Source: a virus
Length of the DNA: 8,268 nt
Virus record (IMG/VR): IMGVR_UViG_3300036767_000929
Location: 1-8,268 of that record
Reading direction: 5' to 3' (one strand)
Shown in pieces: positions 1-8,268 of this stretch. The position numbers were made by a program, and so were the translations under genes. Each line of letters begins with the position of its first letter. Positions within the stretch are counted from its first letter, which is position 1. Below the pieces are notes generated by a model. It was not told the origin of the DNA. It saw only the letters and a list, made by a program, of their open reading frames with translations, and made no database searches.

Positions 1-127
1 ACATCGGTTCGCCGGTCGTCAAGAAAGCAGACTTACGAGTCTTCGAATGTTACCGATCCACAGCAACCGGTGAAGCTAAATCGTCTAACGAAAATAAGAA
101 TATTTTTAATGATCCAAAGCTTAGAGT
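1..127. repeat. Left copy of the exact 127-bp terminal direct repeat (identical to 8142-8268)
   Basis: Base-by-base comparison: acatcggttcgccggtcgtcaag...gatccaaagcttagagt is present at both ends. Confidence 0.97.
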
Positions 128-599
128 ATTTCTTTCAGTTGCGCTTTTTGCTTTGTTCGTTTTTATCTACGCTCTGTGGGGTGCTGTTGAAAGGTATTCG
201 GACCGTATCAACCAGAATACTGAAGCCAGCGTTACTTCTTCTCCTGCGACTCCTGCTGTCGTTGCTACTTCTGATCCTTCTGGCCAGGTTGATCCGTTAC
301 CTACTGAGGTTCCTGATCGCCTGACTGTTCCTCTTAATTCCTTGCTCTCTGGTCGTGAGTTGTTTTTTGCTGGTTCATTTTTTGGCCGTCATTACTTCAC
401 CGCAATAGGCGACAAAAGCCAGCTTACTTTTACTGATTTTGATTTCGAATCTGCCGGCTTCAGCGTTGATGTCCTCTCTGATTGTCTGGCAATTCTTCGA
501 TCTTCTGAGTCCGTTACTTACGCCACTTGCTTACCAGACACAGATGATCAAAAGGATCGCTCTGTGGCTGTGTCAGATGCGCCAGAACGGATTTTTTGA
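1..599 (+). CDS. zot: 3' part of the Zot/pI-family assembly ATPase gene, continuing 7559..8268 across the circular junction. Codon phase starts at base 3 and the stop TGA is at 597-599.
   Basis: The open frame from base 3 is the same phase as 7559..8268 after subtracting 8141. It encodes a transmembrane segment FLSVALFALFVFIYALWGAV (about 129-188) followed by a roughly 135-aa C-terminal domain. This is the N-terminal ATPase / TM / periplasmic layout of pI/Zot. The joined gene is 1182 nt (393 aa). Confidence 0.9.
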   Translation, partial: IGSPVVKKADLRVFECYRSTATGEAKSSNENKNIFNDPKLRVFLSVALFALFVFIYALWGAVERYSDRINQNTEASVTSSPATPAVVATSDPSGQVDPLPTEVPDRLTVPLNSLLSGRELFFAGSFFGRHYFTAIGDKSQLTFTDFDFESAGFSVDVLSDCLAILRSSESVTYATCLPDTDDQKDRSVAVSDAPERIF

Positions 600-856
600 A
601 TACATTGTTAGTAGTGGTTCAGATTTATCTGAACAAGAGGTAGCGCAGCGTAGGACGTGAGTCCTGACCCTGTGTTCAAGAACTGAGGCACGAAGTTTTT
701 GTGCACATGGCCAGCTCTGCTGGCAGCCCACGGCGCGGGGCGCTTAACGATCAAGCGAACAGCGCAGGAGGCAAGCGCCCCGCGCTACGTCTCTGTAACA
801 CGTAGTTTAAAAGGGGGATTACCCTCGATGTTCTCGACTAAAAAAGGAATTTCGGT
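600..856. promoter_or_regulatory. Main intergenic region between zot and rep with clustered stem-loops; candidate replication origin(s), packaging signal and rep promoter
   Basis: Non-coding 257 bp. Hairpins read directly: 617-623/628-634 (7 bp, loop ttta), 651-656/661-666, 710-715/719-724 (6 bp, loop tct), 733-745/773-785 (13 bp perfect) and 785-790/800-805 (6 bp). It sits immediately upstream of rep, as the IG region does in other inoviruses. Confidence 0.6.
733..785. repeat. Perfect 13-bp GC-rich inverted repeat gcgcggggcgctt / aagcgccccgcgc with a 27-nt loop
   Basis: Arms 733-745 and 773-785 are exact reverse complements. This is the strongest predicted structure in the window. Confidence 0.9.
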
Positions 857-2206
857 ATGGCACGGTACGAAAATAAGAAACCTAACCGCTCTGGTTCAGT
901 GTTTACTAATGATCGGGGCTCTATCATTTCTGACTTATCATCAGTCCGTTTTCTTTTCCGTGGTGTCGATACTATTCGACAGTTGTATAACTGCTCTGTA
1001 CGACCTGAGATCTTTGACGCAGTGACTAACCACTGGGAAACCGCAAAAGATGACGTGATTATCCTGCAAGGCATGGAGTTCAAGCTTTCATCGTCGGGTA
1101 AGGCGGCCGGGTATAAGTACATCCTCAAAAATCTGGAAGCGGGCGTTATCGTTCTGTTCAAGTCCATGTACTGTGAGGCTGACAAGCAAGGGCCACACAT
1201 CAAGATAGAGGCAACGCCTCAACTGATTCAGGAACTCGGGTTACAGAAGCTGACCAATTACCTGAGACAAGTCGCGTCGATCTTTGCTGACACTCTTGAG
1301 GCCTCTGGCGTCGCTGTTCATCTGGCCTGTGACTTTAAAGGCTGGGAACCTCCCCAGGACTTTGAATCCAGTCTTGTTACCCGCTCTAAGCGAAATCTTC
1401 GGGTGAATGCGTTAACCGCTGCCCACAATCAATCAGTCTCTGAAGTTGCCTTGGTCTATGGTCAGGGCCAGACATACATGTTCGGTGAGTCGGGATCTCT
1501 CCAGTTCTGCCTGTATGAAAAGAGTGCTGAAGCCATCAAGTCCCGTAAGCTCGAGTTCTGCGAATCGCTATGGTCGCAAGTGCCCTCGGTCGATGATCCC
1601 AGCAAGCCAGAATACAACGACGGTTCAGACGGTACGGAAGCAGATACGGTCAGAAGGGTAGAGTTCAGGATTCACCAGAGTGTTATCAAAGAATTCGAAC
1701 ATGGCCATTTTAACGTAACTCAGCAACTCGACGAAAAGGGCAACATAGTTTCGCCGGGGGAGTTGTGTTGTATTCGAGAAGCGCGTGATCTGATTCCTCA
1801 CCTTCAAGGCCTTTGGGAATACTGCCTCAATAACTTTCGGTATCAGTACAGCACCACCTATGTTCATCCTCTATGGTCCATGCTGTCAGACGATGTTGAG
1901 TGGTTCGGGTTTGCTGAAGGGTGGACGTACAAGCGCAGTCAAAAAAAGTCCGTTGATGGGGTATCCAATCGCAACGTGGCCATGTGGTTGGGCAACTGGC
2001 TCCGGATTGCTGCAGCCAAAGGCTTGAAAACCTCGTTCGTGGTGAACCAGATCATGTCCGCGGGTGCTGATTCCATGGTGGCTGACTATTTCGGAGTAAG
2101 GCTATACGGTAATACCAATGAGGTGGTGTCTCTGCTGACTGAGTTCGTAGAGAAACGCATGAGGGATCATAGGCTGAACGGGGTAGGAGGGCTGAAAGTT
2201 GCGTAA
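857..2206 (+). CDS. Rolling-circle replication initiator (Rep_trans / RstA-like, gpII functional analogue), 449 aa
   Basis: ATG at 857 lies 8 nt after aagga (844-848). It is the first long ORF after the IG region. Motifs recalled from pT181 RepC/RepD-type initiators: VHLACDF (1316-1336, compare R-x-D-x-A-x-D), GESGSLQFCLYEK (putative catalytic Tyr220, codon 1514-1516, compare RIYNK/RIYDK) and RRVEFRIHQS (1652-1681, compare WRVEIELKRD). Confidence 0.78.
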   Translation: MARYENKKPNRSGSVFTNDRGSIISDLSSVRFLFRGVDTIRQLYNCSVRPEIFDAVTNHWETAKDDVIILQGMEFKLSSSGKAAGYKYILKNLEAGVIVLFKSMYCEADKQGPHIKIEATPQLIQELGLQKLTNYLRQVASIFADTLEASGVAVHLACDFKGWEPPQDFESSLVTRSKRNLRVNALTAAHNQSVSEVALVYGQGQTYMFGESGSLQFCLYEKSAEAIKSRKLEFCESLWSQVPSVDDPSKPEYNDGSDGTEADTVRRVEFRIHQSVIKEFEHGHFNVTQQLDEKGNIVSPGELCCIREARDLIPHLQGLWEYCLNNFRYQYSTTYVHPLWSMLSDDVEWFGFAEGWTYKRSQKKSVDGVSNRNVAMWLGNWLRIAAAKGLKTSFVVNQIMSAGADSMVADYFGVRLYGNTNEVVSLLTEFVEKRMRDHRLNGVGGLKVA

Positions 2207-3029
2207 TCTCAGTGATGCTATCCGTCTCTGGTACAAAGTACATGGCCATACCCTGAAGGATGCCAAGTACCGCTTCATGCGTACCTTAGCGATTGCTGAA
2301 CGTATGGATGATCCACTACTCACTGAATTCAGTGCTCGTACGTTTGCCGATTACCGCGCAGATCGGGCGGGTAAGGTAAGCAATGCCACACTGAACCATG
2401 AACTCAGATACCTTAGAGCGGTGTTCTCTGAACTCGTCAGGCTCCAATACCTGACAGAAAACCCACTGGCTCAGGTACGTCAGTTCGCGGTCACGGAAAC
2501 CGAACTCGCCTACCTTGATAAATTCCAGATAGAAACCCTGTTCGCATCGTTGCGGGAAGCAAAGAACCAACACGCCTACTGGGTCGCAAGGATCTGCCTG
2601 AGTACCGGTGCCCGTTGGATTGAAGCGGAAAGCCTGAAGGCCCATCAACTGGTTCAGAAGCCAAAGCCAGGTATCCGGTACGTGAATACAAAGAACGGGA
2701 AGAACCGCTTCGTTCCTGTAGATCCAGTCTTTCTGGCTGAATTGAGAATGGCCACACGGCCAGACAAAGATAAGAAGCTGTTCAAGTCCTGCCGATCGGC
2801 GTTCCGGTATGCGGTAAAGAGGGCGGGGTTAGAGTTTCCAGAACAGCAGATGACCCATATTCTGAGACACACCTACGCCAGTCACTTCCTTATGAACGGC
2901 GGGGATCTCTTCGTACTACAGCGGGTTCTTGGGCATTCGGACATCAAGACAACGATGAGATATAGCCACTTCTCCCCAGATTATCTGGATCAGGCTTCTA
3001 CCTTCGCACCCACTGTTAAAGGAGTTTAA
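2199..3029 (+). CDS. int: Tyrosine recombinase / phage integrase, 276 aa, TTG start
   Basis: Canonical catalytic signature: CLSTGARWIEAESLK (box I Arg), HILRHTYASH (H-x-x-R), LGHSDIKTTMRYSHF (His plus nucleophile Tyr255, codon 2961-2963). AGGAGG at 2185-2190 sits 8 nt before TTG 2199. The first in-frame ATG is at 2277. The catalytic region resembles the P2 Int C-terminal region as I recall it. Confidence 0.93.
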   Translation: MRNLSDAIRLWYKVHGHTLKDAKYRFMRTLAIAERMDDPLLTEFSARTFADYRADRAGKVSNATLNHELRYLRAVFSELVRLQYLTENPLAQVRQFAVTETELAYLDKFQIETLFASLREAKNQHAYWVARICLSTGARWIEAESLKAHQLVQKPKPGIRYVNTKNGKNRFVPVDPVFLAELRMATRPDKDKKLFKSCRSAFRYAVKRAGLEFPEQQMTHILRHTYASHFLMNGGDLFVLQRVLGHSDIKTTMRYSHFSPDYLDQASTFAPTVKGV

Positions 3030-3031
3030 CT

Positions 3032-3253
3032 ATGAATTTATCTATCTCGCTTTCAGAACTAATGGCTCTAGCTCTTCTAGATCCAATTTGTTCAGTTGGT
3101 CTTTATCACGACGATAAGCGCTATTCCGTACCCTGTGGCCTTCTGTATCACGCCGTGAAGGATCTCTCAAGTTACCCTGAAGTATTTTGGCCTCTCCCTG
3201 ATCCCGACTTGCACTTCGAAGTTGTCGAGAGTCTTTCTCAACTCCCTTTCTGA
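3032..3253 (+). CDS. Hypothetical 73-aa protein directly downstream of int
   Basis: ATG 3032 is preceded by aaaggag (3019-3025) and starts 2 nt after the int stop. No recognisable motif. An antisense ORF (3042..3281) overlaps it but starts inside the terminator hairpin. Confidence 0.5.
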   Translation: MNLSISLSELMALALLDPICSVGLYHDDKRYSVPCGLLYHAVKDLSSYPEVFWPLPDPDLHFEVVESLSQLPF

Positions 3254-3257
3254 GTCC

Positions 3258-3284
3258 AAAAAAAAGGATGCCTTTAGGCATCCT
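3258..3284 (-). terminator. Rho-independent terminator for minus-strand transcription
   Basis: 8-bp stem aggatgcc (3265-3272) / ggcatcct (3277-3284), loop ttta. It is preceded on the plus strand by A8 (3258-3265), which gives hairpin plus U-tract on the minus strand. It lies downstream of the minus-strand operon 3983..3405. Confidence 0.75.
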
Positions 3285-3308
3285 CTATCAATAACTGTCG
3301 GCTTGTAC

Positions 3309-3343
3309 AGTAACCGAAGTAACCACTAACACGTAAGTTACTG
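3309..3343. repeat. Short repeats in the attP arm: agtaacc direct repeat (3309-3315, 3319-3325) and cagtaac/gttactg inverted repeat (3308-3314, 3337-3343)
   Basis: Read directly. The direct repeats are 10 bp apart (one helical turn) and next to the tRNA-like core. A role as recombinase or accessory-factor sites is inference only. Confidence 0.35.
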
Positions 3344-3352
3344 AAAAATAAG

Positions 3353-3397
3353 TGGTAGCTATGACTGGACTTGAACCAGTGACCCCAGCATTATGAA
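3353..3397 (-). other. attP core: 3' half of a tRNA (anticodon loop with CAT, variable loop, T-arm, acceptor 3' strand, discriminator A, CCA). Not a complete tRNA gene.
   Basis: The minus strand reads ttcataa-tgctg-gggtc-actgg-ttcaagt-ccagt-catagct-a-cca. The T-stem actgg/ccagt pairs, the T-loop is ttcaagt, and there is a CCA end. It closely parallels the 3' half of elongator tRNA-Met as I recall it. Upstream sequence (gtgtt...) cannot pair with tgctg, and no agctatg acceptor partner exists. Confidence 0.8.
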
Positions 3398-3404
3398 AAC
3401 ACGG

Positions 3405-3644
3405 TTAGATTTCTCCTCTATCCATTGCTTTAAATGCCTGATTCGCGGTTAGTATCTTCTTCTCACTCTTCTTTCTGTCTTCTACTTGGCGTGCTCGTAC
3501 CAATGCTTGATACGCAATTCCGTTGTTGAATGCTATTCCTCCGGATGGCTTCCATCCTTCCATCATGTGAATCTGCACGTCTTTTTCTATCTGCCTGCAT
3601 TCTGCTGTGTCTTTGATCAGCTTGTATTCGTATACTGTCTTCAT
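3405..3644 (-). CDS. DUF1737-like small protein (79 aa), second gene of the immunity operon
   Basis: ATG at 3644-3642 has aagga 8 nt upstream on the minus strand. YEYKLI...IEKDVQIHMMEGWKPSGGIAFNNGIAYQALV matches the DUF1737 pattern I remember (short alpha/beta domain with GW-x-P-x-GG ... YQA). A basic C-terminal tail follows. Confidence 0.6.
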   Translation of the reverse strand: MKTVYEYKLIKDTAECRQIEKDVQIHMMEGWKPSGGIAFNNGIAYQALVRARQVEDRKKSEKKILTANQAFKAMDRGEI

Positions 3645-3713
3645 ATCCTTATTCCTTGAGCTTGAGTCGTTATAGCTTCCAACTGTCCGCGACTCGTTTT
3701 GCCAATCTTCTAC

Positions 3714-3983
3714 CTACGGCGTTTTCTTTAGCTGCCGTTGGGCCTTCTTAGTCATTGGGCTAATTTGCCCAGCTTCTGGTATTTCTTTTCCTGTCGAAAG
3801 CCAATAACCGTATTCCGGCCAGATCTCGGATAGTGCTTCCACTTCAGAAGCTCGCATTTCAACTGTGCCAGCCTTGACCGATCCCCAGCGCCTCCGGCCA
3901 ATACCTGTCTCTTCTTCAAGCCACGGCAGCTTCACTCCCTCTGACTCAAGCAATATCAAAAACCTATCAAGGCAACCTGACAT
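3714..3983 (-). CDS. Phage repressor-like HTH (Cro/CI/XRE-type) protein, 89 aa
   Basis: It is transcribed divergently from the morphogenesis operon, the position of Pf4r/RstR. The segment LEEETGIGRRRWGSVKAGTVEMRASEVEALSEIWPEYGYWLSTGKE has the helix-turn-helix ... W-L-x-T-G ending typical of CI/Cro-family domains. There is no SD before the ATG. Confidence 0.68.
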   Translation of the reverse strand: MSGCLDRFLILLESEGVKLPWLEEETGIGRRRWGSVKAGTVEMRASEVEALSEIWPEYGYWLSTGKEIPEAGQISPMTKKAQRQLKKTP

Positions 3984-3995
3984 ATAGATAAATAC

Positions 3996-4037
3996 AATGA
4001 CAAATTATTTGTTATCAATTGCAAATAGTTTGTCATT
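3996..4037. promoter_or_regulatory. 42-bp near-perfect palindrome; candidate operator of the repressor
   Basis: The left arm aatgacaaattatttg (3996-4011) matches the reverse complement of caaatagtttgtcatt (4022-4037) at 15 of 16 positions, with a 10-bp spacer. It is centred in the divergent intergenic region. An extra half-site-like copy gtttgtc occurs at 4050-4056, 22 bp after 4028-4034. Confidence 0.6.
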
Positions 4038-4047
4038 CTCCTATTGT
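4019..4047 (+). promoter_or_regulatory. Candidate sigma70 promoter for the rightward (late/morphogenesis) operon
   Basis: TTGCAA (4019-4024), 17-bp spacer, TATTGT (4042-4047). The spacer and -35 overlap the right arm of the palindrome. A candidate leftward promoter is TTGATA (complement of 4013-4018), 18 bp, TATTTA (complement of 3989-3994). Confidence 0.45.
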
Positions 4048-4053
4048 GTGTTT

Positions 4054-4075
4054 GTCCGGTACTGCAATACCGGAT
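4054..4075 (+). other. Stem-loop in the 5' leader of the rightward operon
   Basis: ccggta (4056-4061) pairs with taccgg (4068-4073), loop ctgcaa. The stem is extendable by t4055-a4074 and g4054-t4075. Confidence 0.4.
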
Positions 4076-4147
4076 TGCTGTTAAACGTAACCAACAATCC
4101 TACCCTTAAACGCGATAAGTGTCGCGCGGGTGGCATAGGGGCACATC

Positions 4148-4453
4148 ATGGACGTAAGGCAATTAGTGGACGACATCGCCGGGTCTTCTCCTTTTCCTGA
4201 GCTGTTTACCATCGCCATTCCCTCTGAAGATGCAAAGCGTGAGTTAGTCGCCTGCATCAAAGACCAGTCCGTTATGTATCCCGAAGTCGCTCTTCGCGCC
4301 GCTATCGCGCTCGCCTCTGATCCTGAGTCCTCACTAGATGACGTTATTGAATTCTTATCGGGTGTTCGTCAGGAGCTGAACGCGTTGGGTCTGGAACGTC
4401 TTGGTATTGCTCATTGCGCGGCGGTACCACAAGTAAACACTGGTTCAAGGTGA
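4148..4453 (+). CDS. Hypothetical acidic 101-aa protein, first gene of the rightward operon
   Basis: ATG 4148 lies 6 nt after agggg (4137-4141) in a clean ORF. No motif recognised. Confidence 0.6.
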   Translation: MDVRQLVDDIAGSSPFPELFTIAIPSEDAKRELVACIKDQSVMYPEVALRAAIALASDPESSLDDVIEFLSGVRQELNALGLERLGIAHCAAVPQVNTGSR

Positions 4454-4458
4454 TCTCC

Positions 4459-4692
4459 ATGTCTGTCGCATTGAAGAGTGTTTGCTCTGAAAAATTTATT
4501 TTGTCTTCTATCCGTGACGCCTTTCGGGCTCAGGATCGTACGTGTGTTCGTAAGTACAACACTGTTCTTACTCTAACTGTTCGTATCTCTGGTGATCTGC
4601 CGGAGCTGTTCGTAAAAAACAACGTACTTGATTGCAGAATGACGCTTGCTCAACTGATTCGTTTTTTGGATGGAATCGATCCGAATAAATGA
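4459..4692 (+). CDS. Hypothetical 77-aa protein. The ORF track gives 4414, but ATG 4459 is preferred.
   Basis: ATG 4459 follows aggtg (4446-4450) and avoids overlap with the upstream gene, whose stop is at 4451-4453. No motif recognised. Confidence 0.55.
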   Translation: MSVALKSVCSEKFILSSIRDAFRAQDRTCVRKYNTVLTLTVRISGDLPELFVKNNVLDCRMTLAQLIRFLDGIDPNK

Positions 4693-4764
4693 AAACACAA
4701 TGCGGCATAGAAAAGCGGCTGTGCTGCTGGGATTAACTCCGCTAACAAGAAAAGGTAACTACCA

Positions 4765-5055
4765 ATGAAAGCAACAATGACACTGCAAGTCCTCGGCTGT
4801 GCTTCCTACAACATGGAAAGCGGCAACATTTCTCAGGTGTTCGCGATGGTGAACGACCCTGAAAACAAGAACATAAAAGGCTTCGCCGTCGCGAAAATGT
4901 CGGCTGAATCCTCGGTAGTGGCCTCACTACCTGCTGACCCTAATCAGTACCCTTTCACTGCTGACTTTGAGGTTCACAACAAAGTAGCGGGTGGCAAGCT
5001 GACCCAGCACATCCAGCGTTACATTCCATCAGCTAAATCGCCTAAGGCCGGCTAA
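4765..5055 (+). CDS. Putative ssDNA-binding protein (gpV analogue), 96 aa
   Basis: The call rests on position (immediately upstream of the small membrane/coat genes), size near 90-100 aa and a sequence that looks beta-rich. SD aaagg is at 4751-4755. No diagnostic motif was verified. Confidence 0.4.
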   Translation: MKATMTLQVLGCASYNMESGNISQVFAMVNDPENKNIKGFAVAKMSAESSVVASLPADPNQYPFTADFEVHNKVAGGKLTQHIQRYIPSAKSPKAG

Positions 5056-5297
5056 TGGAGCTCGTTTATGTGTGTGATTCATCCCAGGACGTCACTACTG
5101 GAACCTATGCTCAATGTGATAATTGGATCAAGGTGGATTACACACAGCTAGTTCGGACGGCGGACGTAACGCGGCTAGAAGATCTGCTCGTTACCTTCTC
5201 CCCTGAAACGTTCGCGGCAATAGTCGCGGCAACCTTGGTGACGTTTATTACCGGCCATGTTGCTGGAGTAATCGTCAAGTTAATGAATAGAACCTGA
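5055..5297 (+). CDS. Small membrane protein (80 aa) with a C-terminal TM helix; possible minor coat or assembly protein
   Basis: The start overlaps the upstream stop (TAATG at 5053-5057). The C-terminal hydrophobic segment is FAAIVAATLVTFITGHVAGVIV, followed by basic KLMNRT. A roughly 83-aa ORF precedes coaB at the same position in Pf1-type phages. Confidence 0.5.
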   Translation: MELVYVCDSSQDVTTGTYAQCDNWIKVDYTQLVRTADVTRLEDLLVTFSPETFAAIVAATLVTFITGHVAGVIVKLMNRT

Positions 5298-5311
5298 AAA
5301 GGACTATAACC

Positions 5312-5554
5312 ATGAAAAACAAACTCGCTTCTCTGAAAAACCGTCATATCAACCGTCTGAAAGCTGCTGGCTTCACCGCTGTAGGTACTGCCGTTGGCGC
5401 GCCTGCATTCGCTGACGAAGCAACCCAGACAGCCATCACTGCTGCCTATACTGACGGCGGCGCTGATCTTACCGTTGCTGTAGCTGGTCTGATCGGACTC
5501 GTTGCTATTGTGGTCGGTGTTGGCATGATCGTAAGCATGCTCCGTAAGGGCTAA
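5312..5554 (+). CDS. coaB: Major coat protein precursor (pVIII / Pf1 CoaB type), 80 aa
   Basis: Signal peptide ending APAFA|DE. The predicted 46-aa mature protein has an acidic N-terminus, a hydrophobic core LIGLVAIVVGVGMIV and a basic end SMLRKG. From memory, the Pf1 coat ends IYSMLRKA and is also 46 aa mature. SD aaagga is at 5298-5303. Confidence 0.88.
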   Translation: MKNKLASLKNRHINRLKAAGFTAVGTAVGAPAFADEATQTAITAAYTDGGADLTVAVAGLIGLVAIVVGVGMIVSMLRKG

Positions 5555-5556
5555 GT

Positions 5557-5634
5557 ATGCTCATCACGGTCATTCTCGCGGTGTTGTTCGGTTTTTCTTT
5601 TCTGATCGGGTTTTACACCGGGCGGATGTCCTGA
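5557..5634 (+). CDS. 25-codon hydrophobic mini-ORF (MLITVILAVLFGFSFLIGFYTGRMS); candidate pVII/pIX-like or PfsE-like small membrane protein
   Basis: It is not in the supplied ORF track because it is too short. ATG 5557 is 2 nt after the coaB stop and 6 nt after aaggg (5546-5550). It has a single TM-length hydrophobic stretch, and its stop TGA (5632-5634) runs into the terminator stem. Confidence 0.4.
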   Translation: MLITVILAVLFGFSFLIGFYTGRMS

Positions 5635-5654
5635 GGCCCTTCGGGGCCTTTTTT
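5634..5654 (+). terminator. Rho-independent terminator after the coat-gene block
   Basis: Stem aggccc (5634-5639) / gggcct (5644-5649), loop ttcg, followed by a T-run (5649-5654) and a second T7 (5660-5666). Ff phages have the same arrangement, with a terminator after gene VIII. Confidence 0.85.
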
Positions 5655-5685
5655 ATTGCTTTTTTTATGTATTCGTGGGGTTGTT

Positions 5686-7170
5686 ATGAAATTCTTTTTC
5701 GTCTTCTTTTTCATCACTCTTCCTCTTGTTTCTCATTCCCAAACAGTTTCTGAAGCTTGCCCGGGTGGTTACGCTGGTTCGTTTCAGGCCGGTCTAGGCT
5801 CATTTTGGGAAGCTACTTGTGGTGTGAATACTGGCAAGACAGATTATGCCGGTAATGGTGAATTTTTCTGTAGTCCAACCGGTTATGTTCACCCCACATA
5901 TGGTGATAGACAATACCAGTGGTTTTATACCAGTGTTTGCAATCCGAATCCCGGCAATCCTGATCCTAGTGATCCATCAGATCCCGGCGGCCCTTCAGAT
6001 CCCGGCGACCCATCAGACCCTAGCGACCCTTCGGACCCTAGTGATCCATCAGATCCCGGTACTGGCGGTGGTGATCCCGGTACTGGCGGTGGCGATCCCG
6101 GTACTGGCGGTGGCGATCCCGGTACTGGTGGTGGCAATCCCGGTACTGGCGGTGGTGATCCCGGTACTGGTGGTGGTGATCCCGGTACTGGTGGTGGTGA
6201 TCCCGGTACTGGTGGTGGTGATCCCGGTACTGGTGGTGGTGATGGTGATGGTACTGGCGGTGGTGATCCCGGTACTGGTGATGGTGTTGGTGACGGTACT
6301 AGTGGTGATACAGGTACAGATGGTCCCGGTAATAATCTCAACTGTCCTGACGGATACGTTCTAGAGGGTTCTGATTGTGTTGCTACTTTAGATAACGAAT
6401 CAGAATGTCCTGCTCTCTATCAATGGGACCCAGATTTCAACGAATGTTACGGTCCTCCCGTTGATGACACCGTCGACGATAATCCTGATAGTCCAAATGA
6501 TCCGATTGATCCAAATGATACAGATACAGAAATCGCTTCCGTTGATATTACGAACCCCGGTGATATCAGTACGCCGATTGTAGAATCCGTAAGCTCTGGT
6601 ACTTTTTCTGTAGTAGAGGCGGTTAATAACGCCTCTTCAAACAACACGTCAGCGATAAATAATCAGACAAACGCTATCACTAATGCTATTTCAGCGGCTG
6701 GTCAGGACGGTGATGGATCTGAGACTGATCTTACCGCTACTAACAATCTTCTGTCCGAAGCTAACGAACTGTCTCGACAAGGCAACGGAACTCTTAACAG
6801 CATCGATGACACACTCTCAGAGAGTAAAGACACTTTGGATGGCATAGCGTGCGTTTTTGGTTCTGGTGAAGATTGTGAGAAAACCGGCGCATTCACTAAA
6901 GATGGTTTTCCGTCTCTGGATGCTCGTGTTCAAGCTGCTCAATCAGAATATCTCGCAGACTTAGATACTTACATGAGCCAGATGTCCGGTTTGTTCAGTA
7001 TTCAAGTCAATCAATCCTCGCCTTTCGTCGATGATGTCAGAGAAGTTCGCGGCGTCGGTATTAATTTCGGAAGCTCTGCAATCGCTGAAGGTGTTCAGTT
7101 TTTACCAGAACTCATACTTCTCTTTTTTTCTGTGAGTGCGGCAATTGTCATGGTTAGGGGTATCGTATGA
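5686..7170 (+). CDS. pIII-like adsorption / minor coat protein, 494 aa from ATG 5686 (the track's TTG 5656 lies in the terminator T-run)
   Basis: Signal peptide MKFFFVFFFITLPLVSHS|Q. A 4-Cys N-terminal domain is followed by a long Asp/Pro/Gly/Ser/Thr-rich repeat linker, a second 4-Cys domain (NCPDGYVLEGSDC...ECPALYQWDPDFNEC) and a C-terminal membrane anchor LPELILLFFSVSAAIVMV. The position between the coat and pVI-like genes fits. Confidence 0.8.
   Translation: MKFFFVFFFITLPLVSHSQTVSEACPGGYAGSFQAGLGSFWEATCGVNTGKTDYAGNGEFFCSPTGYVHPTYGDRQYQWFYTSVCNPNPGNPDPSDPSDPGGPSDPGDPSDPSDPSDPSDPSDPGTGGGDPGTGGGDPGTGGGDPGTGGGNPGTGGGDPGTGGGDPGTGGGDPGTGGGDPGTGGGDGDGTGGGDPGTGDGVGDGTSGDTGTDGPGNNLNCPDGYVLEGSDCVATLDNESECPALYQWDPDFNECYGPPVDDTVDDNPDSPNDPIDPNDTDTEIASVDITNPGDISTPIVESVSSGTFSVVEAVNNASSNNTSAINNQTNAITNAISAAGQDGDGSETDLTATNNLLSEANELSRQGNGTLNSIDDTLSESKDTLDGIACVFGSGEDCEKTGAFTKDGFPSLDARVQAAQSEYLADLDTYMSQMSGLFSIQVNQSSPFVDDVREVRGVGINFGSSAIAEGVQFLPELILLFFSVSAAIVMVRGIV
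5941..6330 (+). repeat. In-frame low-complexity tandem repeats inside the pIII-like gene: DPS/DPG 9-nt type (5941-6051), nine 21-nt units encoding (D/N)PGTGGG (6052-6240), then a degenerate tail
   Basis: The units gatcccggtactgg(c/t)ggtgg(t/c) were counted directly. Units 6157-6240 are four identical copies. The others differ only at Gly wobble positions or by one Asp-to-Asn change. Confidence 0.95.
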
Positions 7171-7562
7171 AGAAGTTTTTAATGTTCGTCGTGCTCTTTC
7201 TGCCACTCTTCGCGTTTGCTGAAGGCTCGGCTCCGGGCAGTGACCCCGAAGTAAGCATGCTCTCTGTATTCGATGCTTTGTTTACCACTGACGCTAACGG
7301 ATTTTTCGAAACCTTGTTCGAGCGTGCGGCTGCTTGGATGATTCTCTCCTGGATAGAATTTAAAGTCTGGCTGCTGTCTTTTTCTTTCGACGTTGCTTTA
7401 CTCGTTGTTGAGTCTCTGGATATTACTGGTCAGATAGAGAGCCAGCTTTCCGGTCTGTCGGCCACTATGTATGCGTGGGTGTCTTATCTTCGGATACTTG
7501 AAGGGGTGAACATGCTCCTCTCTGCGTACGGCTCGGTGATGATTATGAGGCTCGTCTCGTGA
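7167..7562 (+). CDS. pVI-like minor coat / membrane protein, 131 aa
   Basis: Its position between the pIII-like gene and zot matches Ace in CTXphi and pVI in Ff. It is hydrophobic with several TM-like segments. The ATGA overlap with the pIII stop (7167-7170) and the GTGA overlap with the zot start (7559-7562) indicate translational coupling. Confidence 0.6.
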   Translation: MKKFLMFVVLFLPLFAFAEGSAPGSDPEVSMLSVFDALFTTDANGFFETLFERAAAWMILSWIEFKVWLLSFSFDVALLVVESLDITGQIESQLSGLSATMYAWVSYLRILEGVNMLLSAYGSVMIMRLVS

Positions 7563-8268
7563 CGGCGGTGATCCATCACGGCCCCCCAGGTTCGTACAAG
7601 TCCTTCGCTATTGTTCAGGACGTCGTAATTCCTGCACTAATGAAAGGCCGTACCGTGGTGACTAATATCCGCGGTTTGGATGACATAGACCGGATTGCAC
7701 AGGCAATGGACTTGGATATACCAGATCGTACTGAGCTAATACACGTCGGCCAGCGTTCAAAAGACGATTACGAAAAAATGGCCAAGTTTCATCACTGGGT
7801 TCCAGTGGGCGCACTGATCTGCATCGATGAAGCTCAAGCTGTCTATCCAACGCGACTAAGATCTCTCTCTGTCTTTGATGTGCCTGAAGGGCAAGAGCGC
7901 GACAACTACAACGGCGAAGCTATGCCCGTCGATGTTGAACGCGCCTTTGATATGCACCGACATTTCAATTGGGATATCTATATTTCCACTCCGAACATAG
8001 CAAAGATCCATAAAGAAATTCGCGGCGTGTGCGAGTACGCTTACAGGCATCGGGATATGTCCGGGCTGCTGCCGTGGATAAAGAACCAATGGCGGGAATT
8101 CAAACATGACAGCGAACAGTCAGGTAAATCAGTCAGTCACTACATCGGTTCGCCGGTCGTCAAGAAAGCAGACTTACGAGTCTTCGAATGTTACCGATCC
8201 ACAGCAACCGGTGAAGCTAAATCGTCTAACGAAAATAAGAATATTTTTAATGATCCAAAGCTTAGAGT
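7559..8268 (+). CDS. zot: 5' part of the Zot/pI-family assembly ATPase gene (GTG start; runs off the window end and continues at base 128 of the circle)
   Basis: The N-terminus (M)TAVIHHGPPGSYKSF parallels CTXphi Zot MSIFIHHGAPGSYKTS as I recall it. Walker A is GPPGSYKS (7580-7603) and Walker B is LICIDEAQ (about 7814-7837). gagg at 7547-7550 lies 8 nt before the GTG. No stop occurs before the window end. Confidence 0.92.
   Translation, partial: MTAVIHHGPPGSYKSFAIVQDVVIPALMKGRTVVTNIRGLDDIDRIAQAMDLDIPDRTELIHVGQRSKDDYEKMAKFHHWVPVGALICIDEAQAVYPTRLRSLSVFDVPEGQERDNYNGEAMPVDVERAFDMHRHFNWDIYISTPNIAKIHKEIRGVCEYAYRHRDMSGLLPWIKNQWREFKHDSEQSGKSVSHYIGSPVVKKADLRVFECYRSTATGEAKSSNENKNIFNDPKLR
8142..8268. 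repeat. Right copy of the exact 127-bp terminal direct repeat (identical to 1-127)
   Basis: Base-by-base identity with 1-127. Confidence 0.97.

Follow-up and report, generated by a model that had tools for sequence, protein, structure and literature searches.

The 8,268-nucleotide (nt) stretch analysed here, referred to throughout as the window, comprises positions 1 to 8,268 of the IMG/VR virus record IMGVR_UViG_3300036767_000929 and carries, directly behind a replication initiator gene (rep), a gene (int) for a short tyrosine integrase of 276 amino acids (aa) without an arm-binding domain (Table 1). Positions 1–127 are identical to 8142–8268, and a Zot/pI-type open reading frame (ORF) with the Walker A motif GPPGSYKS runs from about position 7562 across the contig junction to position 599. 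Because of this 127-bp terminal repeat and the ORF reading through it, the contig is a circular assembly of a genome of 8141 bp, i.e. the 8268-base window minus the repeat; the Zot/pI gene was missing from the initial ORF list because the junction interrupts it. The gene order comprises Zot, rep, int, orf73, a hairpin terminator, two leftward genes, one of them repressor-like, and a rightward block of small ORFs followed by an 80-aa coat-like protein, a 504-aa Gly/Pro-rich pIII-like protein and a DUF2523/Ace-like pVI, which is the layout of the Pseudomonas Pf phages. Rep shares 30% identity with the replication protein of Pf 62-2 (E = 3e-65) and matches phrog_1159 (E = 3e-104), and the 89-aa repressor-like gene occupies the position that pf4r holds in Pf phages. 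A megablast comparison of the whole window with GenBank phages returned zero matches, and relatives were found at the protein level only. The analysis showed that the window is the circular, excised form of the genome of a Pf-like inovirus, a temperate phage whose hosts are marine and of Oceanospirillales type.

Table 1 Features of the window discussed in the text (+, strand shown; −, complementary strand).
Feature	Coordinates	Strand	Evidence and remarks
rep, Pf-type replication initiator, 449 aa	857..2206	+	Homology to Pf 62-2 Rep, phrog_1159, Zot-rep-int position
AGGAGG, putative Shine-Dalgarno sequence for int	2185..2190	+	Inside the rep codons for GVGG
int, 276-aa tyrosine integrase	2199..3029	+	TTG start; Pfam, alignments, AlphaFold2, Foldseek, dN/dS
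orf73, small acidic 73-aa ORF	3032..3253	+	Own AAGGAG; starts 2 nt past the int stop
G+C hairpin followed by T8	3263..3286	−	Terminator scan
Imperfect palindrome CACTAACACGTAAGTT in the P arm	3324..3339		Conserved in clade A phages
attP core, 45 bp	3353..3397	−	Identical to the 3' part of tRNA-Met, CCA end to anticodon loop
Predicted crossover region, anticodon loop TTCATAA (tRNA strand)	3391..3397	−	Edge of the attP/attB identity
Repressor-like helix-turn-helix (HTH) regulator, 89 aa	3714..3983	−	phrog_147, E = 3e-17; divergent from structural/early operon
101-aa ORF, first conserved gene of the rightward operon	4148..4453	+	Position of the excisionase gene in Pf phages; not excisionase-like
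127-bp direct repeat of the contig ends	8142..8268		Identical to 1–127

Pfam analysis assigned residues 2–96 of Int to Int_N (PF24624), the P2-type core-binding (CB) domain, covering profile positions 3–99 of 100 (E = 3e-27), and residues 105–258 to Phage_integrase (PF00589, E = 4e-18), the catalytic (CAT) domain. In the 336-aa integrase of phage 186 and in two Pf integrases of 331 and 335 aa, the Int_N match begins only at residue 53 or 56, and the alignment revealed that the window Int begins exactly at the end of the N-terminal domain of about 55 aa of these enzymes. One Pf integrase gave a weak Arm-DNA-bind_4 match within this extra segment. Most members of the IntP2 subgroup carry such an arm-binding (AB) domain, which is formed by three strands and a helix and comprises about 55 aa. 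A hidden Markov model (HMM) constructed from eight AB domains found no match in any of the six reading frames of the window (lowest E = 1.7), and a marginal match in the relative L095 (E = 0.006) corresponded to antisense low-complexity sequence without an ORF. These comparisons showed that Int consists of the CB and CAT domains only; the AB domain of about 55 aa has been removed precisely, and a new start codon lies at the domain boundary. Such AB-less enzymes are called arm-less in the following.

A sequence search of the PDB retrieved the CAT domain of HP1 Int (1AIH, E = 6e-41) and P2 Int (5C6K, E = 6e-36, query residues 2–272), and over the CB and CAT domains the enzyme shares 46% identity with 186 Int and 47–49% with Pf integrases. 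The AlphaFold2 model, calculated from a 40-sequence alignment, reached a mean predicted local distance difference test score (pLDDT) of 92 and comprises a four-helix CB bundle from residue 4 followed by the CAT domain. With the whole model as query, Foldseek returned lambda Int residues 75–356 (template modelling (TM) score 0.73–0.75) and Tn1549 Int residues 82–397 (TM 0.77), these best-superposing structures being constructs without the AB domain, as well as CAT-domain matches to 1AIH and 5C6K. The catalytic residues R139, K165, H220, R223, H246 and Y255 are invariant in the 40 sequences. Sequence and model consistently identify the enzyme as a member of the tyrosine recombinase superfamily and its sequence places it in the IntP2 subgroup, i.e. 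the P2/186/HP1/Pf family; the XerA, XerC and XerD models scored 74–87 bits against cut-offs of 220–335, which argues against a Xer protein. A preliminary description, made from the sequence alone, had proposed that an AB domain of roughly 60 aa is missing from an enzyme with complete CB and CAT regions and a P2-like catalytic half. All parts of this proposal are borne out by the domain, structure and identity data above.

The same description had placed the int start at TTG 2199, nested in the end of rep behind an AGGAGG embedded in the rep coding sequence, and had named ATG 2277 as the alternative start. Both the nesting and the motif were recovered: the TTG overlaps rep by 8 nt (rep TAA at 2204–2206), and the AGGAGG lies 8 nt 5' of it. 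AGGAGG occurs twice in the window, no more often than expected by chance, and its meaning lies solely in the distance to the start; the motif is kept in L004 and L094 and not in L010 and L014. A TGA at 2193–2195 lies in the int frame one codon 5' of the TTG, and an upstream extension of int is therefore excluded. Among the relatives, the form of the junction varies considerably. The 8-nt overlap with TTG and AGGAGG is shared by the window, L004 and L094, the arrangement TGA-T-ATG with a 1-nt gap by L010, L012 and L096, and an overlapping ATG was found in L014, a 3-nt gap in L147 and a 1-nt overlap in L150, while the close relative L095 has a spacer of about 85 nt with an in-frame stop three codons upstream of int. 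In all junction types Int begins at the equivalent codon, which is ATG or TTG in the relatives. The first 26 codons, i.e. those preceding ATG 2277, are identical to L010 at 20 of 26 positions with synonymous sites saturated, and residues 1–10, which form helix 1 of the CB bundle, were modelled with a pLDDT of 95. Because of the equivalent starts in relatives, the conservation of these codons and the confidence of the model in this segment, we assign the start to TTG 2199 and not to ATG 2277.

Rep-int overlaps of 4 nt are present in Pf 62-2 and PfAC01b as well as in the marine arm-containing relatives L153, L155, L156 and L157, and in Pf4 the genes PA0727 (rep) and PA0728 (intF4, 328 aa) form one operon, the promoter of which is activated by XisF4 (PMC7379572). 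Judged from these sequences, the nesting of int onto rep is the norm among Pf-like inoviruses and no peculiarity of the window phage. In a sequence scan, rep was free of promoter-like sites and the plus strand showed no terminator up to the end of int, and the gene geometry makes it plausible that synthesis of Int is coupled to translation of Rep.

Int is not only short but also maintained in this form. Between the window and its 91%-identical relatives, the ratio of nonsynonymous to synonymous substitution rates (dN/dS) of int is 0.03–0.05. The roughly 30 closest database homologues (98% to 50% identity) measure 276–298 aa, whereas those of lower identity measure 318–354 aa, and the short enzymes start 1–7 residues before a conserved L-S/N-D-x-x-x-L-W motif, except for a few with up to 20 preceding residues for which the gene caller chose an upstream start. 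For a wider survey of N-termini, the best 150 representatives of 50% identity clusters were considered (E up to 7e-32), of which 121 have matches reaching the N-terminus of the query. Approximately 113 of these 121 carry an N-terminal extension of 50–75 residues, which is absent in at most seven. Two representatives, P0130 (501 aa) and P0249 (438 aa), are overlong, and each matches over two segments, perhaps because genes were fused or wrongly joined in gene calling.

A neighbour-joining tree of the shared domains (200 bootstrap replicates) recovered an arm-less clade A including the window in 198 of 200 replicates and an arm-less clade B in 192, and the two were never joined with each other (0/200); clade B instead joined an arm-containing clade in 123 of 200 replicates. 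This separate grouping points to at least two events, either two losses of the AB domain or one loss followed by recombinational re-acquisition. In both clades int lies directly behind rep in inoviruses, and the short form is kept at 50–98% identity. Not included in either clade was P0049 from Pseudoteredinibacter, a short homologue outside an inovirus that resembles a truncated copy of an AB-containing relative. In sequence from Pseudoteredinibacter isoporae (run SRR12223001; L149, positions 5969–11859), two tRNA-Met-type att copies flank an island of about 5.8 kb with a transposase fragment and a 291-aa integrase resembling an N-terminally truncated copy of the arm-containing P0047; this island is probably a decayed element and not an inovirus. 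As regards the window, the short int was shown by these sequence criteria to be a selectively maintained gene and not a pseudogene. The preliminary description had named a truncated pseudogene and an AB domain supplied by an extension or frameshift as outcomes that would overturn its reading; the former is contradicted by the low dN/dS, the invariant catalytic residues and the conserved short clades, the latter by the upstream TGA and the absence of AB-like sequence in six frames.

The attachment site was located by aligning the window with attR of L004, L010 and L094 and with attL of L010. The resulting attP core lies 324 nt downstream of int, and its identity with attB ends at 3397/3398. As the identity ends there, and by analogy with the annotated attP crossover of phage 186, the crossover likely takes place at the anticodon loop. 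In L004 and five shorter contigs, the Int of which is 98% identical, rep and int are followed by a tRNA-Met gene and host cysN/cysD, and in the 76%-identical relative L010 the whole prophage occupies this locus on a 188-kb contig, between direct repeats. The arm-less integrases of L014, a Thalassolituus metagenome-assembled genome (Int 74% identical), and of L147 and L148 (51%) likewise adjoin tRNA-Met; tRNA-Met genes were called in L004, L010, L014, L147 and L148. Wherever both are visible, the T-stem variant of the phage copy equals that of the host-side tRNA copy. The alignments showed in this way that arm-less relatives are integrated in tRNA-Met beside cysN/cysD with matching attL and attR, and near-identical phages exist in both integrated and circular form.

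The hairpin at 3263–3286 is predicted to end transcripts running leftward and, once the phage is integrated, those of the tRNA-Met gene that integration rebuilds; analogous minus-strand hairpins with a T-run just beyond attP are present in L004 (2362–2392), in L147 (about 10920–10980) and also in L010. Between the terminator and the attP core lies the palindrome 3324–3339 (CACTWACAYGTAAGTK), which is a perfect 16-bp palindrome in L095 and is absent from clade B (L147), where the P arm measures only about 98 nt and is essentially the terminator hairpin. An operator-like repeated site was considered for this palindrome and rejected, the element being single-copy in the window, and an outer 12-nt inverted repeat (3303–3314/3337–3348) was dropped as a conserved hairpin since it is not kept in L004 or L010. 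A sequence scan for arm-type repeats around attP (3000–3720) yielded no family above noise and only short pairs at chance level.

The statement that no recognisable excisionase (Xis) is present in the window also stood up to closer inspection: its ORFs gave no HTH_17, Phage_Cox or excisionase match with Pfam (to E = 5) or PHROGs. A Pf-Xis HMM, built from Pf excisionases and one marine homologue, matched all six AB-containing inoviruses examined (E = 3e-9 to 1e-52). In contrast, it found no match in the arm-less window, L010/L012/L096, L095, L147/L148, L150, L158 and L159 (best E = 0.18). The 101-aa ORF at 4148–4453 has only seven close homologues, shares 38% identity with its L010 counterpart, is all-helical in an AlphaFold2 model of pLDDT 65 and gave no match to Pfam, PHROGs or the Pf-Xis HMM. 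These searches suggest a joint loss of the AB domain and of the excisionase that partners it.

We propose, at a probability of roughly 60%, that the window encodes a secondarily simplified, Brujita-like integrase within the IntP2 subgroup, whose direction of reaction would be set by expression of the rep-int unit; its function is deduced by analogy. In the account of Lunt & Hatfull 2016 given in PMC8138268, the mycobacteriophage Brujita provides the precedent of a directionless, arm-less integrase that catalyses a reversible exchange without a recombination directionality factor. Four Int protomers would bind core-type sites only, arranged around the crossover in the anticodon loop, and exchange strands; with neither arm sites nor excisionase, the reaction would be intrinsically reversible and its direction would depend on the timing of Int synthesis and the supply of substrate. 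Rep and Int would be co-expressed from a repressor-controlled replication operon, such that infection or induction would provide many replicative-form copies together with Int and lead to integration or excision, until the repressor shuts the operon off and freezes the current state. Initiation at the weak TTG by ribosomes that are completing rep would keep Int low relative to Rep. The wider hypothesis, namely that the arm-less IntP2 integrases of marine inoviruses are autonomous, reversible and Xis-free, with direction handed to a Rep-coupled replication switch after joint loss of AB domain and Xis on at least two occasions, is put forward tentatively, as we consider the odds to lean against it.

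Several observations weigh against the proposed autonomy, and a competing account holds that the arm-less Int is not self-sufficient. According to that account, an unrecognised phage-encoded DNA-binding or DNA-bending protein and/or the host proteins integration host factor (IHF) and Fis would act on positions 3303–3352 and provide architecture and directionality, replacing AB domain and Xis in trans, with orf79 (3405–3644), the 101-aa ORF and the repressor as candidates. Clade A conserves this block of about 50 bp, which includes the palindrome, directly beside the attP core, at 80–91% identity among phages that share only about 67% identity in int DNA, and the block could be an accessory-protein site. 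The core-type site on the P' side (C') is weak, as in our reading its symmetry with the C site extends to only about 4 of 10 positions, and poor core-site symmetry is what arm binding compensates in arm-dependent systems. Moreover, anonymous small ORFs lie on either side of attP and at the start of the early operon, and a directionality factor that escaped recognition could be among them, with orf79 and the 101-aa ORF as candidates. The absence of a Pf-type Xis rests on Pfam, PHROGs and one custom HMM, its co-absence with the AB domain on six versus about seven phages and probably two evolutionary events, and the spacer in L095 implies that tight translational coupling of int to rep is not obligatory. 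On the other hand, block and palindrome are absent from clade B, in which the P arm of L147 leaves little beyond the terminator hairpin, the palindrome is single-copy in the window, the candidate ORFs are without a DNA-binding signature, and a portion of the block is similar to what follows tRNA-Met on its 3' side in the host, for which reason it may be inherited rather than functional. Taken together, we regard dependence on an accessory factor as a serious contender that is nevertheless unlikely.

Other explanations fare considerably worse. Integrase genes often decay by losing their N-terminal part, and the P0049 gene in its non-phage island does resemble a truncated gene; the short int could in principle be a decaying, non-functional remnant in phages persisting as episomes or locked-in prophages. 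This is very improbable given the dN/dS of int, its invariant catalytic residues, a short form that spans 50–98% identity in two clades and always has a proper start at the domain boundary, and the occurrence of integrated and circular near-identical forms in which the attP T-stem variants match the tRNA copy of attL/attR. Comparably improbable is the recombination of a folded single-stranded attP, as in CTX-phi with XerCD or in integrons with IntI and attC, which would suit a single-stranded DNA phage with intergenic hairpins and an arm-less enzyme, as IntI and Xer are. We rejected this mechanism because the crossover region has no inverted copy in the window or in L095 (best 14/22, equal to the shuffled expectation); in addition, attP contains only the 3' half of the anticodon stem, and the crossover cannot be duplex in single-stranded DNA. 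The least probable of all is that the enzyme does obtain an AB domain, be it because the start has been placed wrongly, by programmed frameshifting out of rep or as a polypeptide encoded elsewhere. The overlap of int with rep makes a frameshift fusion geometrically conceivable, but besides the in-frame TGA and the lack of AB-like sequence in six frames, the differing junctions of the relatives (an overlap of 8 nt, gaps of 1 and 3 nt, and a spacer of 85 nt containing in-frame stops) are incompatible with a conserved fusion, and the sole AB-HMM match in a relative is the antisense low-complexity hit in L095.

Comparison with known systems places the simplified integrase close to established families. 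The Pf integrases (IntF4/PA0728 and the Pf6 type) are its nearest characterised counterparts among those compared, with 47–49% identity, a homologous Rep, the same Zot-rep-int order and rep stop and int start codons sharing bases. The attP of Pf6 is a 46-bp tRNA-Met fragment (PMC7549136), and both Pf6 and the window phage, with 45 bp, use the 3' part of the tRNA gene. By its Pf-type Rep, the Zot gene upstream, the overlapping stop and start and the tRNA-derived attP, the locus is assigned on sequence grounds to the Pf-like inovirus rep-int modules. Pf integrases differ in their length of 328–335 aa with an AB domain; the window phage lacks this domain as well as the HTH_17 excisionase (XisF4, XisF5, Xis-Met) that Pf phages possess. 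The integrases of P2, 186 and HP1 share the Int_N and Phage_integrase domains and, according to the 186 annotation, an att site of the tRNA anticodon-loop type. However, these systems are heterobivalent, with an AB domain, arm-type attP sites, IHF and the directionality factors Cox or Apl (186 annotation), whereas in the window there is no AB domain and neither arm-type repeats nor a Cox, Apl or Xis homologue were detected.

Smyshlyaev et al. 2021 (PMC8138268) list P2/HP1-type integrases (IntP2) among the arm-containing recombinases and counted 27 phages with simple recombinases versus 410 with arm-containing ones; the one recognised IntP2-subgroup lineage without AB domain is Rci of the plasmid R64 shufflon. 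Rci, compared here by description only, differs in being a DNA invertase acting on plasmid shufflon repeats and no phage integrase. Brujita Int is likewise a phage integrase with CB and CAT domains only and without an excisionase, but it is not closely related to the window Int (5VFZ: Foldseek E = 5e-7, 16% identity, TM 0.45) and belongs to the Xer-like simple group, which is regarded as possibly ancestral (PMC8138268). The window enzyme, in contrast, would represent a secondary loss inside an arm-containing subgroup, in a single-stranded DNA inovirus and linked to rep. From sequence and model, it nonetheless fits the Brujita-like functional class in its architecture, being two-domain, phage-encoded and, judged by its relatives, integrating. 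The filamentous phages CTX-phi, VGJ-phi and Cf1c also integrate via an arm-less tyrosine recombinase; they use host XerC/XerD at dif, whereas the window phage encodes its own enzyme and targets tRNA-Met.

Among the neighbouring genes, orf73 gave no family match in Pfam and PHROG searches, and the segment 3017–3302 is swapped for unrelated sequence in the 91%-identical prophage L004; orf73 is accordingly best regarded as putative variable cargo outside the recombination module. The pIII-like ORF (5656–7170) contains long runs of PSD and GDPGTGG repeats at about 5950–6330, which represent the usual Gly-rich linker of inovirus receptor-binding proteins in an unusually extended form. Two arm-containing marine relatives carry further modules: in L151 a ParD-like gene is inserted between rep and int (3537–3761), and in L155 an HTH_17/PIN (VapC-like) pair occupies the edge of the prophage (283–1301).

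Overall, the locus is of a known kind, a P2/Pf-type integrase in a Pf-like rep-int module, and is not a new system; what is new is its arm-less and Xis-less state. It is through the AB domain and the excisionase that simple tyrosine recombinases are considered to have become the regulated integrases of mobile elements (PMC8138268). Both features are missing from the present lineage within a classic arm-containing family, having been lost apparently on more than one occasion, and the genomic footprints of tRNA integration and excision have been kept. If the enzyme works alone, the arm/Xis apparatus would be dispensable for an episomally replicating phage that ties Int synthesis to its replication gene, and the lineage would offer a natural experiment on the contribution of the arm domain in P2-type integrases as well as a small integrase that has a defined site of 45 bp and may need no accessory factors. 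Were the autonomous reading true, it would constitute a natural reversal of the scenario in which acquisition of the AB domain made integrases mobile, embodied in a compact, accessory-free tRNA-Met integrase. For annotation, the findings caution that a missing arm-binding domain does not mean that an integrase lies outside mobile elements. These phages are valuable because their arm/Xis apparatus has been lost naturally and, it appears, repeatedly, with integration retained.

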